IMG/VR virus record: IMGVR_UViG_2648501186_000020
Direction: 5' to 3' (one strand)
Origin: a virus
Lineage: Duplodnaviria; Heunggongvirae; Uroviricota; Caudoviricetes
DNA length: 9,478 nucleotides
The notes under the pieces were generated by a model. That model ran no database searches. It was not told the origin of the DNA and saw only the letters and a program-made list of their open reading frames with translations. Positions 4,588 to 9,478 of this stretch are shown one piece after another. The position numbers and the translations under genes were made by a program. Each line of letters begins with the position of its first letter. Positions within the stretch are counted from its first letter, which is position 1.

Positions 4588-5022
4588 ATGTCCGGTAATA
4601 TCTATACGCTGTACAAATCCCACTGTGAAAATGTTGGAAAGTATCGGGGCATTGAAATCAGTGGGGTAGTGTCATCAGTCGAAATAAGCAAAGTTGAATC
4701 AAGGGCAACATTACTTACTCTTTTGGACCTTGTCTTACATGAGCACCGGAAGAAATTCGGCACTCCCTATAATCAGTTGAATGGGAAAAAGGCTCTGGTT
4801 CACCTTATTCTGATGAAGCATCACTGGATGCCAAAACAGATTAATGAGATGAAATTTGATGAACTTCTTCTTTCAATTCAGGATGAACTCACACTTGATA
4901 AAATAAGCGTAACCGCCCAGAAATTTTTAGATTATCGAGACTGGAGATCACAAATTCATCATTTTGATGATTTTGACGAAAATGAATGGGATCCTAATTT
5001 GTCTGCACAATATCTAAAGTAA
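4588..5022 (+). CDS. Orphan hypothetical protein, 144 aa, transcribed opposite to the flanking phage early-left operon
   Basis: ATG preceded by SD AAGGA (4577-4581) with 6-nt spacer. Protein-like composition with His/Lys-rich centre (HEHRKKF, MKHHWMPK) and acidic C-terminus (HHFDDFDENEWDP). A plus-strand intrinsic terminator follows at 5260-5285. No family recognised. Confidence 0.75.
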   Translation: MSGNIYTLYKSHCENVGKYRGIEISGVVSSVEISKVESRATLLTLLDLVLHEHRKKFGTPYNQLNGKKALVHLILMKHHWMPKQINEMKFDELLLSIQDELTLDKISVTAQKFLDYRDWRSQIHHFDDFDENEWDPNLSAQYLK

Positions 5023-5200
5023 CATCCTGTGATAAAACCGTGATTTCCTGATCCAGTTTTTTTAAGGAGTCTATTGTTTCCTGTCGATAAGACAGCACTT
5101 CACGAAGCTGGTTTATAGCTGCCAGCTTCTTTGTCATCCACTCATAAATTTCCTCATCTGTGTAGCCAGGCGCGACGATTTTGGGTTCTGTTTTGTGCAT
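4994..5200 (-). CDS. Small hypothetical protein, 68 aa; first gene downstream of PL
   Basis: ATG at 5200 with strong SD GAGGAG and 7-nt spacer. The track's longer form uses an upstream TTG. Stop TAG at 4994-4996 overlaps the 3' end of orf144 by 29 bp (convergent). No arginine-rich N-like motif; mid-region may be helical (AAINQLREVLSYRQETIDSLKKLDQEI). Confidence 0.6.
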   Translation of the reverse strand: MHKTEPKIVAPGYTDEEIYEWMTKKLAAINQLREVLSYRQETIDSLKKLDQEITVLSQDVTLDIVQTN

Positions 5201-5245
5201 TTCACATCTCCTCAAGTTATCAGTTACTTGTTGATGGGGACCAGA

Positions 5246-5257
5246 TTGTTAAAGAGC
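5246..5257 (-). promoter_or_regulatory. boxA-like element (GCTCTTTAACAA on the minus strand) in the PL leader, 2 nt downstream of a hairpin
   Basis: Minus-strand reading AGCGCCCTACAGGACGCT-TA-GCTCTTTAACAATCTGG. The 12-mer matches the rrn / lambdoid nut boxA consensus as I recall it. Position is between PL and the first PL gene. Confidence 0.4.
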
Positions 5258-5259
5258 TA

Positions 5260-5285
5260 AGCGTCCTGTAGGGCGCTTTTTTGTT
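5260..5285 (+). terminator. Rho-independent terminator, plus strand (likely ends the orf144 transcript)
   Basis: Stem AGCGTCC / GGGCGCT (7 bp including one G-U), loop TGTA, followed by TTTTTTGTTG. The same hairpin on the minus-strand transcript is the one adjacent to the boxA-like element. Confidence 0.55.
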
Positions 5286-5367
5286 GCTAACGAATCATCC
5301 TGGACTTCATATGCCCCAGGCGGCTACTTCGTGGGCGTCCTGCCTGTTCGTTGTTTCGCTTGGGTAC

Positions 5368-5395
5368 ATTATGTATCTCAAAGGTACATTGTCAA
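5368..5395 (-). promoter_or_regulatory. PL-like sigma70 promoter with overlapping operator (OL)
   Basis: Minus strand reads TTGACA (5395-5390), 16-nt spacer, CATAAT (5373-5368). Palindrome TACAT-T-ATGTA (5365-5375) overlaps the -10. GGTACA half-sites at 5363-5368 and 5383-5388 resemble the OR half-sites. Confidence 0.6.
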
Positions 5396-5396
5396 G

Positions 5397-5422
5397 TATA
5401 AAAAAACCTGCCGAAGCAGGTT
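5397..5422 (-). terminator. Rho-independent terminator just downstream of cI (minus strand)
   Basis: Minus-strand hairpin AACCTGC-TTCG-GCAGGTT followed by a 7-U run. It lies 13 nt after the cI stop. Confidence 0.6.
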
Positions 5423-5434
5423 CATAAACATTGA

Positions 5435-6109
5435 TTAGGCTTTGATTTTGTATCTTCTTGGTTTTCCTGAGAAAATCACTGTACCAATTATAGAGCAATT
5501 ACCGTTGATCTTAATGTAAGGCTCAGGCCAGTTTGGGTTTAACGCTTTGAGATAACGCTGTGTCCCATCTTCTATCAACCTTTTGAAGGTGGTTTCACCT
5601 GTATCGTGCATCAATGCAATAACGTCGTCACCGTGGCAGGCAGGTACTTCAGGATCGACAAAAATCATGTCTCCCGGGCGGTACTCATCAATCATTGAAT
5701 CACCTATCACCCGCAAGATATAAGTCATTTCCCCACAGGGTACAGGGCAGGGATACGTTTCTGCTGTGCTCAAATCAACCTCAGAATATCCAACTTCTTT
5801 CCATGCTCCGGCCTGTACCCATGATATGACAGGGACTAATGTGATTTGTTTATTAGTGATTGAAACATCAGGTTTTTTTGTGATGTTCGTTGTCTGGTGT
5901 TCTTGATCGAGCCATCCGACAGGCAGGTCGAAACATTTTTCGATGTGTCGTGCCATGCTGTCACCGATATTTTTAGTAGCACCATCTCCCATAAACCTGC
6001 TGGTCTGGGTTGGCTCGCGATCAATCATAGTGGCAAAGGAAGAATTCCCGCCAACACCATCTCTCAGTTTTCTGGCGTTAGACCGCCGGATGTCATGGAT
6101 TGTTTTCAT
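5435..6109 (-). CDS. cI: Prophage repressor, CI / C2-like, 224 aa (N-terminal HTH, C-terminal S24 LexA-like autopeptidase)
   Basis: C-terminal VIGDSMIDEYRPGDMIFVD contains the S24 Ser motif; TFKRL supplies the Lys. Candidate Ala-Gly cleavage site in WVQAGAW. Divergent from a cro-like gene across an operator-rich spacer. Confidence 0.88.
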   Translation of the reverse strand: MKTIHDIRRSNARKLRDGVGGNSSFATMIDREPTQTSRFMGDGATKNIGDSMARHIEKCFDLPVGWLDQEHQTTNITKKPDVSITNKQITLVPVISWVQAGAWKEVGYSEVDLSTAETYPCPVPCGEMTYILRVIGDSMIDEYRPGDMIFVDPEVPACHGDDVIALMHDTGETTFKRLIEDGTQRYLKALNPNWPEPYIKINGNCSIIGTVIFSGKPRRYKIKA

Positions 6110-6124
6110 AACGAAATTAAAACC

Positions 6125-6197
6125 CTTGTACCGTTAAGGTACAAGTATCTTGAAGGTTCATTTCAATCATGTAATATGTACACCGGAGGTACATATT
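6125..6197 (+). promoter_or_regulatory. OR operators with PR (and presumably PRM) between cI and cro
   Basis: Palindrome CTTGTACC-GTTAA-GGTACAAG (6125-6145). Second inverted repeat AATATGTAC-N7-GTACATATT (6173-6197). PR candidate TTGAAG (6150-6155), 16-nt spacer, TAATAT (6172-6177). Cro SD GGAGG at 6185-6189. Confidence 0.55.
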
Positions 6198-6199
6198 GT

Positions 6200-6400
6200 A
6201 TGAAAGCGTATTGGGACTCTTTAACCAAAGAACAGCAGGGCGAGTTGGCCGGAAAAGTTGGCTCAACACCTGGCTACTTACGGCTGGTTTTCAATGGCTA
6301 TAAAAAAGCCAGTTTTGTGCTGGCTAAAAAACTTGAGCAATGCACGTCAGGTGCAATTACGAAATCTGACTTAAGACCGGATATCTATCCGAAAGATTAG
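6200..6400 (+). CDS. cro: Cro-like HTH regulator, 66 aa
   Basis: ATG at 6200 with SD GGAGG 10 nt upstream. Small basic protein (MKAYWDSLTKEQQGELAGKVGSTPGYLRLVFNGYKK...) divergent from cI. The track's 167-aa form is an in-frame upstream extension that runs antisense through cI. Confidence 0.8.
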   Translation: MKAYWDSLTKEQQGELAGKVGSTPGYLRLVFNGYKKASFVLAKKLEQCTSGAITKSDLRPDIYPKD

Positions 6401-6431
6401 CAGAACACTTTCAATTTTTAACCACAGAACG

Positions 6432-6995
6432 ATGAGGCTAATCGTGGGTAAGCATCACTGGAAAATAGAAAAACAGCCTGAGTGGTACGTGAAAGCTGTC
6501 AGAAAAACTATCGCGGCGTTGCCGGGTGGTTACGCTGAAGCGGCTGACTGGCTCGATGTAACAGAAAACGCTTTATTCAACCGCCTTCGTGCAGATGGCG
6601 ATCAGATTTTCCCGCTGGGATGGGCAATGGTTTTACAGCGTGCTGGTGGCACTCACTTCATTGCTGATGCTGTGGCGCAGTCTGCAAATGGCGTCTTTGT
6701 GTCTCTTCCTGACGTCGAGGATGTGGACAACGCCGATATCAACCAACGCCTGCTGGAGGTCATTGAACAGATCGGCAGTTATTCAAAACAGATTCGTTCA
6801 GCAATTGAAGACGGTGTAGTGGAACCGCATGAGAAGACAGCAATTAACGACGAGTTGTACCTCTCAATTTCGAAGCTGCAGGAGCATGCAGCACTGGTCT
6901 ACAAAATTTTTTGCATTTCAGAAAGTAATGACGCCCGCGAGTGTGCAGCTCCGGGCGCCGTGGCGTGTCGTGACTGTGGAGAAACTAACGCATGA
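6432..6995 (+). CDS. Hypothetical protein at the cII position, 187 aa (possibly a YdaT-like CII functional analogue)
   Basis: ORF directly after cro. A GTG at 6444 with SD GAGG (6434-6437) may be the true start. C-terminus is Cys-rich ([14 protein letters not shown]). Stop TGA overlaps the next ATG as ATGA. Product assignment is a guess from position. Confidence 0.6.
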
Positions 6996-7330
6996 ACAGT
7001 TTAACAACACACTACCGTCGCTCGCAACTGATTGCGCTTCCTGTACCGGGTGGAAAAGCGAAGGTGGAGTATTGCTATGCAGTGAATGTACCAGGTGACA
7101 GGGAAATTGTAACCCACAGCTTTGCAGAGTGGGCTGTGGGGGATTTCAACCGGCAGAAGGAGGCAGTCCTTTGCGACAAGTTAACCGCTGGTTCAAAGAT
7201 CACTACGGAGTGCCCGTCAGAGTCATTCGTTGGGAGCCGGAAACACAACGGGTTATCTACCTCCGTGAAGGCTATGAGCATGAGTGCTTCAGCCCGCTCG
7301 AACAGTTTCGTCGTAAATTCAGGGAAATAG
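6992..7330 (+). CDS. Hypothetical protein, 112 aa; conflicts with same-strand ORFs in another frame, see findings
   Basis: Strong SD GGAGA (6978-6982) and ATGA start/stop coupling with the upstream gene. The C-terminal third ([24 protein letters not shown]) has low-complexity character. Confidence 0.4.
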
Positions 7331-7350
7331 AGGTCGGTCATGAGCACTAA
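7129..7350 (+). CDS. Alternative small ORF, 73 aa, mutually exclusive with 6992..7330 over most of its length
   Basis: More protein-like composition ([34 protein letters not shown]). Ends 11 nt into the O-like gene. No obvious SD at its ATG. Confidence 0.3.
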
Positions 7351-8281
7351 ATTAACCGGCTATGTATGGGATGGTTGCGCAGCGTCAGGCATGAAATTAT
7401 CCAGCGTGGCAATTATGGCCCGCTTGGCTGATTTCAGTAATGACGAAGGTGTGTGCTGGCCATCAATTGAAACCATTGCCCGCCAGATTGGCGCGGGGAT
7501 GAGTACCGTCAGAACGGCTATCGCACGGCTGGAAGCAGAAGGCTGGTTAACGCGTAAGGCGCGTCGCCAGGGTAACCGCAATGCGTCGAATGTTTATCAG
7601 CTTAACGTTGCGAAGCTTCAGGCAGCGGCATTTTCTCAACTGTCAGATTCTGACCCGTCAAAATCTGACGTATCAAAATCTGACCCGTCAAAATTTGATG
7701 CGTCGAAATCTGGCAAAAAAGCGGGTTTTCACCCGTCAGAATCTGGCGGGGATCCGTCAGTAAAATCAAAACATGATCCGTCAGATAAAAAACCTTCTCG
7801 TCCGGACGCTTCGCAACCGGACACGCAGACGGCTGAACAGGATTTTTTAACTCGCCATCCTGATGCGGTTGTATTCAGCCCTAAAAAGCGCCAGTGGGGA
7901 ACGCAGGATGATTTGACCTGCGCACAGTGGCTCTGGAAAAAAATCATTGCCCTGTACGAGCAGGCCGCCGAATGTGACGGCGAGGTGGTTCGTCCCAAAG
8001 AACCGAACTGGACAGCATGGGCAAACGAAATTCGCCTGATGTGTGTGCAGGATGGTCGTACTCACAAACAAATCTGCGAGATGTACAGCCGCGTCAGCCG
8101 CGATCCGTTCTGGTGCCGTAACGTGCTCAGCCCGTCGAAGTTGCGGGAAAAATGGGATGAGCTTTCCCTGCGCTTATCGCCGTCCGTCAGCACGCACACA
8201 GAAAAACGTGAAGACCCGTACTTCAAAGCCAGTTACGACAACGTGGACTACAGCCAGATCCCGGCAGGATTCAGGGGGTGA
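7340..8281 (+). CDS. Replication initiation protein, lambda O-like (N-terminal HTH, repeat linker, C-terminal domain), 313 aa
   Basis: SD AGAGG with 6-nt spacer. N-terminus has the replication-initiator-type HTH (SVAIMARLADFSNDEGVCWPSIETIARQIGAGMSTVRTAIARLEAEGWL). Internal iterons encode a DPSKSD repeat linker. Sits at the O position after cro and the cII-position gene. Confidence 0.82.
   Translation: MSTKLTGYVWDGCAASGMKLSSVAIMARLADFSNDEGVCWPSIETIARQIGAGMSTVRTAIARLEAEGWLTRKARRQGNRNASNVYQLNVAKLQAAAFSQLSDSDPSKSDVSKSDPSKFDASKSGKKAGFHPSESGGDPSVKSKHDPSDKKPSRPDASQPDTQTAEQDFLTRHPDAVVFSPKKRQWGTQDDLTCAQWLWKKIIALYEQAAECDGEVVRPKEPNWTAWANEIRLMCVQDGRTHKQICEMYSRVSRDPFWCRNVLSPSKLREKWDELSLRLSPSVSTHTEKREDPYFKASYDNVDYSQIPAGFRG
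7652..7792 (+). repeat. Putative replication origin iterons inside the O-like gene: four in-frame tandem 15-bp repeats (7652-7711) plus three more spaced CCGTCAG copies
   Basis: GACCCGTCAAAATCT / GACGTATCAAAATCT / GACCCGTCAAAATTT / GATGCGTCGAAATCT, then CCGTCAGAATCTGG (7733-7746), CCGTCAGTAAAATC (7755-7768), CCGTCAGATAAAAA (7778-7791). Analogous to lambda ori inside gene O. Confidence 0.6.
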
Positions 8282-8283
8282 TC

Positions 8284-8709
8284 ATGAGTCTTTTGAATGA
8301 CGTTCAGAAATTCATTGAAGCCCATCCGGGCTGTACTTCCGGAGACATTGCAGATGCTTTTGCTGGTTACTCACGGCAGCGCGTTCTGCAGTCAGCAAGC
8401 AAGTTACGTCAGAGTGGGCGTGTGGCTCACCGTTGTGAAGGAGATACACGCAGACATTTCCCGCGCCTGACTGAGAGAGCGCAGGAGCCGGAACCACAAT
8501 CTGTTCGTGAAACCAGACCTGTGCGCAATTTCTATGTCGGCACTAACGATCCCCGGGTGATTTTGTGCCTGACCCGCCAGGCTGAAGAGCTGGAGTCCAG
8601 GGGCTTATACCGTCGTGCTGCAACGGTGTGGATGGCGGCATTCCGTGAAAGTCACTCCCAGCCAGAACGAAACAACTTTCTGGCGCGTCGAGAAACGAAG
8701 TATGAATAA
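8284..8709 (+). CDS. Hypothetical protein, about 141 aa, with a C-terminal PerC/Pch-like motif
   Basis: ATG at 8284 preceded by AGGGGG; a GTG at 8278 overlaps the O stop. C-terminal EELESRGLYRRAATVWMAAF resembles the PerC-family signature as recalled. Stop overlaps the next ATG. Confidence 0.6.
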   Translation: MSLLNDVQKFIEAHPGCTSGDIADAFAGYSRQRVLQSASKLRQSGRVAHRCEGDTRRHFPRLTERAQEPEPQSVRETRPVRNFYVGTNDPRVILCLTRQAEELESRGLYRRAATVWMAAFRESHSQPERNNFLARRETKYE

Positions 8710-9478
8710 TCTGATGGTCATTGATGGTATTGAAGTTCGTCGTGATGCTTATGGGCGTTACAGCCTGAACGATCTGCATCGCGCAGCAGTAGCATCTGGT
8801 GCAAATGCCAGAACCAAGGAGCCAGGAAAGTTTCTTTCCAGCCAACAAACTGTTGAGCTTGTTCATGAATTAACCAACACCCAGAATTTGGGTGTTGACC
8901 CGGTGAGTGTGATTCATGGGGGAAATGAACGGGGAACGTATGTCTGTAAGGAACTGGTGTATGCCTATGCAATGTGGATCAGCCCGTCATTCCATCTGAA
9001 GGTGATCCGTACTTTCGATATGGTAACCAGCGCGCCGGAAAAGTTATCCGGACAGGCTGCTGACAAGATGCAGGCTGGCGTGATTCTGCTGGACTTTATG
9101 CGCCGGGAGTTAAACCTGTCTAACTCATCTGTGCTTGGTGCCTGTCAGAAACTCCAGGAGGCTGTTGGCTTACCGAATCTGGCACCGCGCTATGCCATTG
9201 ATGCTCCTGCTGACGCGCCTGATGGCTCAAGTCGCCCTACGCTGTCGCTGAGTGCACTGCTGAAACAGTATGGTATCCGCCTTACGGCTAATCAGGCATA
9301 TCACCAGATGGCGAAGCTGGGGATCGTCGAACAGCGCGAACGATACAGCCGTACAGCGATTAACAACATCAAAAAATTCTGGTCGCTGACGGCGAAAGGC
9401 TGCATGTTCGGCAAGAACATCACCAGTCCCGCAAATCCGCGCGAGACGCAGCCGCATTTCTTCGAATCCCGATTCCCA
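8702..9478 (+). CDS. KilA-N domain protein (antirepressor-like, with an ANT/KilAC-like C-terminal region); 3' end lies beyond the window
   Basis: Open frame from ATG 8702 to the window edge with no stop (259 codons); absent from the track because it has no stop. N-terminal region (GRYSLNDLHRAAVASG...GTYVCKELVYAYAMWISPSFHLKVIRTFD) fits the KilA-N/APSES pattern. Confidence 0.72.
   Translation, partial: MNNLMVIDGIEVRRDAYGRYSLNDLHRAAVASGANARTKEPGKFLSSQQTVELVHELTNTQNLGVDPVSVIHGGNERGTYVCKELVYAYAMWISPSFHLKVIRTFDMVTSAPEKLSGQAADKMQAGVILLDFMRRELNLSNSSVLGACQKLQEAVGLPNLAPRYAIDAPADAPDGSSRPTLSLSALLKQYGIRLTANQAYHQMAKLGIVEQRERYSRTAINNIKKFWSLTAKGCMFGKNITSPANPRETQPHFFESRFP

Follow-up and report, generated by a model that had tools for sequence, protein, structure and literature searches.

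A KilA-N protein encoded in the nin region of a lambdoid Escherichia coli prophage carries an unnamed C-terminal module of the Bro network

Results

Genetic context of the KilA-N gene

The window, the whole stretch of 9,478 nucleotides that was analysed, carries E. coli proA, then tRNA-Thr(CGT) at 1369-1444 and then a lambdoid prophage, which is integrated at this tRNA gene beside proA. The KilA-N gene, on the plus strand, follows the replication genes and is separated by 2.6 kb from the minus-strand repressor gene to its left (Table 1). In relatives with identical DNA the genes that follow encode a DUF968 protein, a Q-type antiterminator, a methyltransferase and the lysis cassette, and we therefore assign the KilA-N gene to the nin region within the rightward early operon. 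Consensus scans of the plus strand detected no promoter-like sites from 5300 to 9478 and no terminator-like sites from 6311 to 9478. The same slot is occupied by a 54% identical protein in a Pectobacterium prophage and by a 59% identical protein in a Yersinia ruckeri prophage, and a common gene order recurs: repressor on the minus strand, cro, a CII-like gene, DUF4222, an HTH_36 replication gene and, farther on, KilA-N, DUF968 or Dam, and Q.

Table 1. Coordinates of the KilA-N gene, of the parts of its product and of the surrounding features in the window
Feature	Position	Strand	Basis and remarks
Prophage repressor, LexA/Peptidase_S24 type	5435-6109	-	Pfam Peptidase_S24, E 1.5e-26; annotated ymfK, LexA family
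Early rightward operon preceding the KilA-N gene	6200-8281	+	Pfam and RefSeq annotation
Cro-like YdaS gene	6200-6400	+	Pfam and RefSeq annotation
CII/CP76-like gene	6432-6995	+	Pfam and RefSeq annotation
DUF4222 gene	between the CII/CP76-like and HTH_36 genes	+	Pfam and RefSeq annotation
O-like HTH_36 replication gene	7340-8281	+	Pfam and RefSeq annotation
PerC-family gene, 3'-truncated	8278-8709	+	Pfam PerC, E 3.6e-5; incomplete PerC per RefSeq in locus L001
Junction of the ~802-bp deletion	8690-8693		At about 8692/8693, with GAG microhomology; alignment of the window with locus L002
KilA-N protein gene	8702-9478	+	Codons 1-259 of 269, the final 10 codons and the stop lying outside the window; ORF and translation
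KilA-N domain, APSES-type DNA-binding fold	8720-9028	+	aa 7-109; Pfam PF04383
Helical hairpin, first part of the C-terminal module	9038-9166	+	aa 113-155; AlphaFold2 helices 113-137 and 141-155
Conserved extended loop, LPxYAxDAP...GSSxPT	9167-9238	+	aa 156-179; confident in the module-only model only
Basic β-rich, winged-helix-like subdomain, YGKNxTSPxNPRETQPH(W/F)(Y/F)	9239-9478	+	aa 180-269, in the window to aa 259; AlphaFold2

Other features of the window were recorded alongside. Inside the O-like gene, positions 7649-7712 hold 4.3 tandem copies of the 15-nt unit TCTGACCCGTCAAAA; this array resembles iterons and is probably the replication origin of the prophage. In phage lambda, ori is located within O. 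The integrase ORF within 1459-2933 has 387 aa from its first ATG as compared with 372 aa in RefSeq, and it overlaps by ~120 nt with a 144-aa helix-turn-helix ORF on the minus strand (2499-2933), likely the excisionase. The slot behind the repressor (4588-5430), where other phages have BstA or RexAB-type morons, contains a hairpin resembling a terminator (5423-5404), a strong promoter-like site (11/12, at 5395-5368), a 73-aa minus-strand ORF (4994-5215) and a convergent 144-aa 'ECs1072 family' ORF (4588-5022). The features of this slot had no match in Pfam or PADLOC, and PADLOC returned nothing relevant for the neighbouring small ORFs, those of the slot included.

The gene is nearly complete in the window

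The ATG at 8702, which an earlier note on this DNA had chosen as the start and which is also the RefSeq start, opens a reading frame that continues without a stop to base 9478, i.e. for 259 codons. The note had seen correctly that the gene runs past the edge of the window, its stop lying beyond 9478, and had proposed that the sequence be extended. Positions 8278-9478 are 100% identical in DNA to several complete E. coli chromosomes, and in the genomes with identical DNA the full CDS comprises 810 nt and encodes 269 aa (WP_001061444.1, annotated 'KilA-N domain-containing protein'). WP_001061444.1 in loci L001 and L002 is 100% identical to the window protein, and the residues beyond the window edge, taken from these identical relatives, are ELLKLLDTVH followed by the stop. 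Because only 10 aa are missing and identical relatives supply them, the class of the protein can be settled, which the note had thought impossible for so incomplete a gene. PHROG 129 (phrog_129) aligns with the protein end to end (E 2.2e-124, aa 1-267 against positions 2-268 of the 273 in the profile); its functional label 'transcriptional regulator' is an annotation without an experiment behind it. A search of NCBIfam returned no family, and a sequence search of the PDB gave nothing below E 0.3.

A deletion abuts the start codon

Alignment of the window with locus L002 places a deletion immediately upstream of the KilA-N gene. In L002 the gene order is PerC, LexA-like, RusA, KilA-N, and most related prophages carry the intervening pair, a small LexA-like gene and rusA. 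The segment that is lacking from the window, approximately L002:9418-10219, comprises the 3' end of PerC, this pair and the Shine-Dalgarno sequence native to the KilA-N gene, AAGAGGAG. As a result the TAA stop codon of the truncated PerC gene (8707-8709) overlaps the KilA-N start (ATGAATAA), and, because the native ribosome-binding site is deleted, expression of KilA-N may require that its translation be coupled to the truncated PerC ORF. Strain ETEC1706 is the only one among the best matches that shares the junction.

Several database proteins (P0001-P0006, P0012, P0014, P0192 and P0436) are hybrids in which the KilA-N gene is joined with its neighbours. They include RusA-KilA-N fusions of 401-405 aa, proteins with LexA-like or O-like N-termini joined at about aa 18, a combination of Dam (PF05869) with the C-terminal module, and one protein in which ~70 residues of the C-terminal half are duplicated internally. 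These hybrids suggest either frequent deletion and recombination at the KilA-N locus or gene-calling artefacts.

The N-terminal head is a KilA-N domain

The clear N-terminal KilA-N domain described from the letters alone was borne out by Pfam: PF04383 reaches 79.4 bits over aa 7-109 (cut-off 23.8; E 2.2e-22, profile positions 5-105 of 107) and thus passes the gathering threshold. The head is 40% identical to that of P1 KilA (KILA_BPP1) over aa 4-105. The PADLOC candidate system PDC-S22 gave a weak match (E 1.5e-5) that covers 37 aa in the KilA-N core; we judged this to be shared-domain similarity and rejected membership in PDC-S22.

The C-terminus is not an ANT/KilAC domain

PF03374 (ANT) gave no match at E<=10, either with the whole protein, in which Pfam found KilA-N alone, or with aa 111-269 by themselves, and the controls P1 KilA and P1 Ant1 scored 112 and 106 bits. 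Profile-profile alignment (hhalign) of the C-terminal profile yielded probabilities of 0.1% against P1 KilA and 0.28% against a three-sequence ANT alignment. With no PF03374 match at E<=10 and hhalign probabilities below 1%, the C-terminus is not KilAC, and this identity was rejected. The earlier impression of an ANT/KilAC-like C-terminus therefore fails for the ANT domain itself and holds in a broader sense: the C-terminus is a swappable module of the same Bro/KilA/Rha/Ant network. No end-to-end alignment with a characterised Ant-type antirepressor was obtained.

A C-terminal module shared behind different heads

Searching 1.84 billion representative proteins with aa 110-259 gave 674 clusters at E<=1e-3, 295 of them at E<=1e-10; most carriers of the module have 250-290 aa and match in their C-terminal half. 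In 100 diverse carriers, Pfam recognised the N-terminal heads Phage_pRha (34), Bro-N (17), KilA-N (12), AntA (8), ORF6N (6) and P22_AR_N (1). Neither Pfam nor NCBIfam has a model for the module itself. Its carriers include Bro-N (Pseudomonas phage Solano) and pRha (Ruminococcus phage, gp25) proteins, an early gene of a Paenibacillus phage and the E. coli proteins P0363/P0400, annotated 'Rha family transcriptional regulator'. In the Ruminococcus and Paenibacillus phages the carrier is encoded 1-2 genes after cro in the early operon, the Ruminococcus pRha gene directly after it. The phage-borne carriers with other heads that were examined are early-operon genes like the KilA-N gene of the window and have a homologous module (28-55% identity, with the same invariant motifs), whereas their heads are pRha, Bro-N, AntA, ORF6N or P22_AR_N rather than KilA-N.

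The module (aa ~113-269) is recognised by the motifs LPxYAxDAP, GSSxPT and YGKNxTSPxNPRETQPH(W/F)(Y/F). Across carriers that are 25-59% identical, P162, Y164 and D167 are invariant and S176 and S177 nearly so; R214, G237 and N239 are also invariant, and the helical hairpin has the conserved residues L137, S142, L145 and G146.

Bro-network proteins are domain-swapping, DNA-interacting phage proteins with regulatory examples among them, a concept that goes back to Iyer et al. 2002 (PMC10111431). The protein of the window has both features of this network, a head that is on its domain list (PMC10111431) and a second module that is swapped among network heads.

Predicted structure

The AlphaFold2 model of the full-length protein, based on an alignment of 101 full-length relatives (mean pLDDT 81.6, pTM 0.44), consists of a KilA-N α/β domain (aa 1-110, pLDDT about 80-93), a flexible hinge, the hairpin (113-155), the loop (156-178) and a β-rich domain (180-268). 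The module modelled separately from a diverse alignment is compact (pLDDT 93.7, pTM 0.83), and the hairpin helices in this model (H6-26 and H30-43) reach a pLDDT of about 95. The subdomain of aa 180-269 has the predicted element order β-α-α-β-β-α-β-β-α and a pI of 10.0, and a Bro-N-headed relative of it gave sub-threshold PadR and HTH_21 hints; we call it winged-helix-like as a description suggested by the model and not as a demonstrated fold assignment.

Significant structural neighbours were lacking for both models: Foldseek found nothing at E<=0.001 in the PDB for the full-length model (best E 0.47) or in BFVD. Among the weak PDB matches are PCG2 and Mbp1 (APSES) and the winged-helix proteins DdrC, RovA/SlyA (MarR) and LmrR (PadR); in BFVD a few matches with 'antirepressor' in their names appeared at E about 0.1. 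The fungal APSES domains of Mbp1 and PCG2 are thus among the best PDB matches, at non-significant E-values of 0.5-2. APSES domains are reportedly fold relatives of KilA-N (Iyer, Koonin and Aravind 2002); the fungal proteins differ in being eukaryotic transcription factors that are very distant and do not share the C-terminal module.

Comparison with BstA

Abortive infection of the BstA type had been put forward as a candidate function for the KilA-N gene, with a lean away from it. BstA of the Salmonella prophage BTP1 has 307 aa, a KilA-N-like domain at aa 32-147 that is visible to remote-homology methods only, and a separate C-terminal domain; bstA is located downstream of the repressor gene, presumably under the repressor's promoter, and its start codon is spanned by the 63-bp aba element with terminal CCCGCC direct repeats (PMC8585504). 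We confirmed the cI-bstA layout in the BTP1 sequence.

There is no sequence or profile similarity between the two proteins. The PADLOC BstA profile PDLC02356, which scored 412.5 bits with BstA-BTP1 as the control (E 1.9e-124), did not match the KilA-N protein at E<=1, and BLASTP of the KilA-N protein against BstA-BTP1 gave E 0.41. The two proteins are broadly similar in size (269 and 307 aa), but their C-termini are unrelated: hhalign of the C-terminal profile against BstA returned a probability of 0.6%, and the BstA C-terminal domain (aa ~156-307 of BstA-BTP1) is absent. Whereas bstA-type genes are found downstream of the repressor gene and co-oriented with it, between cI and N, the KilA-N gene is on the opposite strand in the lytic nin region.

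The start of the KilA-N gene was searched for a DNA element of the aba type, and no terminal direct repeats like those of aba were found across it; given that aba elements are homolog-specific (PMC8585504), this result argues against such an element on sequence alone and falls short of a full exclusion. The sole direct repeat near the start is an imperfect one of 12 nt (11/12 matching, at 8659 and 8761), which by our estimate is expected ~0.26 times by chance in the search space. Its upstream copy is in PerC, across the deletion junction, and lies ~800 bp farther away in undeleted relatives.

Distribution and related phage systems

Of 5426 complete E. coli genomes, 2699 have a match to the 1.2-kb region with PerC and the KilA-N gene. 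Phage Ayreon encodes an identical protein, cdtI orf50 is 99% identical, and Stx2c and Stx2k phages have a KilA-N protein at about 86-92% identity. For the C-terminal module, identity reaches 98-100% in SfV orf44, SfII, mEp460 and Stx2a phages and 88% in ST64B. APSE has a full-length relative at 39% identity.

In APSE-2 (L004:4001-5874) the homologue is directly upstream of isrK and C4 antisense RNAs, which are followed by Bro-N and pRha genes in an immI-like arrangement. Rfam detected only the tRNA in the window, and so no isrK or C4 RNA. In the Yersinia ruckeri prophage (L010:6213-7822) a pRha+ANT gene is directly upstream of the KilA-N gene, and the nin region contains tandem Bro-network paralogues with different heads and tails. 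Phage HK022 has in its nin region an unannotated ORF of 241 aa (L012:5656-6381) with a pRha-like N-terminus and an ANT-type C-terminus, AAPKVEFADRV...GYFTVKE; we presume that this ORF is Roi, which is not annotated in the RefSeq record. The HK022 protein and Rha of P22/phi80 occupy the same niche, the nin region from the replication genes to Q, and belong to the same modular regulator network as the KilA-N protein, from which the HK022 protein differs by its pRha-like head and ANT-type C-terminus. Neither Roi nor Rha is known to be essential, and both influence lytic growth in IHF mutants. Our literature search found no experimental study of any member of the KilA-N/module family.

Discussion

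The KilA-N gene is a common prophage early gene, and its product is a two-part, DNA-binding-type protein of the 'Bro/KilA/Rha' domain-swapping family. This classification is near-certain and the mode of action much less so. On balance, we think it probable that the 269-aa protein serves a lambdoid prophage as a delayed-early accessory regulator that binds DNA and belongs to the Bro network, and we infer DNA binding and regulation from the domain class and the genetic context. In this model, (i) the gene would be silent in the lysogen and the protein would be made after repressor inactivation from the replication/nin transcript, (ii) the KilA-N head would bind specific DNA, and (iii) the C-terminal module would add a second contact to nucleic acid or to a partner protein, for which the helical hairpin may drive dimerisation and the basic winged-helix-like domain would provide the contact surface. 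By means of these two contacts the protein would tune transcription or replication of the phage, of the host or of co-resident elements during lytic growth and be dispensable for core functions. Alternatively, the invariant polar motif of the module (D167, S176, S177, R214, K238, N239, R247, E248, T249, Q250 and H252) could constitute a protein-binding, ligand-binding or catalytic site instead.

Three other functions have to be weighed against that of an accessory regulator. A true antirepressor would bind and inactivate a repressor, probably the one made by a co-resident prophage or satellite that is heteroimmune, in the way of P1 Ant1/2 or P22 Ant. That the module is common to proteins with AntA, P22_AR_N, Bro-N and pRha heads, which are typical of antirepressor-annotated proteins, fits such a function, as do relatives annotated 'anti-repressor Ant' in Pseudomonas phage F10 and 'antirepressor' in Ruminococcus phages and the BFVD fold matches with antirepressor names (probability about 0.75 at the E-value given above). 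These annotations, however, go back to homology of the heads and not to experiments, and the protein lacks the ANT/KilAC domain. Moreover, because the gene lies downstream of pR and is controlled by the prophage's own repressor, its product cannot start the induction of its own prophage. Characterised antirepressor genes are typically under separate control (immI or LexA). We regard an antirepressor as unlikely. A host-takeover or host-killing protein like P1 KilA, produced early in lytic growth, toxic to the host when expressed and dispensable for growth of the phage, appears to us slightly less likely again. In its favour, the two proteins have the same head, nearly the same length (266 aa in P1 KilA and 269 aa here) and the same bipartite layout, and both are encoded in a repressor-controlled early lytic operon beside replication functions; in P1, kilA-repL is under C1 control, and the P1 record notes 'product can kill host'. 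Against it stands the C-terminal domain, which is ANT in P1 KilA and an unnamed module without ANT signal or profile similarity in the protein studied here.

The third function, abortive infection by a BstA-like prophage protein that has its cognate aba DNA element, we hold to be highly improbable. What the two proteins have in common is an N-terminal domain of the KilA-N type and a layout of two domains with a broadly similar total length, and the PDC-S22 match to the KilA-N core may be added to this side. Membership in the BstA family is nevertheless rejected by the profile and BLASTP searches, the C-terminus, the position of the gene and the lack of aba-like repeats: the gene resides in a lytic nin region, in Pectobacterium and Yersinia as well, and the single 12-nt repeat near its start spans a recent deletion junction, whereas bstA carries aba across its start codon. 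In this respect the lean away from BstA in the earlier note is supported. More generally, a KilA-N head alone is no sign of BstA-type defence, which is excluded here by sequence and context.

Returning to the accessory regulator, its sequence and its family are already in the databases, and the finding is real but ordinary; the result amounts mainly to an annotation clean-up and holds nothing surprising. Its function is of practical interest because the PerC and KilA-N region is matched in about half of the complete E. coli genomes and also in Stx-, Cdt- and serotype-converting phages.

The point of wider value is the C-terminal module, a large unnamed family with a confidently predicted fold that is reused behind at least six DNA-binding heads. 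Tentatively, and as a less than even prospect, the C-terminal ~155 residues, with their unusually rigid polar motif, may represent an undescribed, autonomous domain family that would form the shared effector end of phage proteins with many different heads and might dock onto one conserved bacterial target, e.g. the machinery of transcription or replication, instead of just binding DNA. Knowing the binding target of the module would annotate thousands of phage 'Rha/Bro/KilA/antirepressor' genes.
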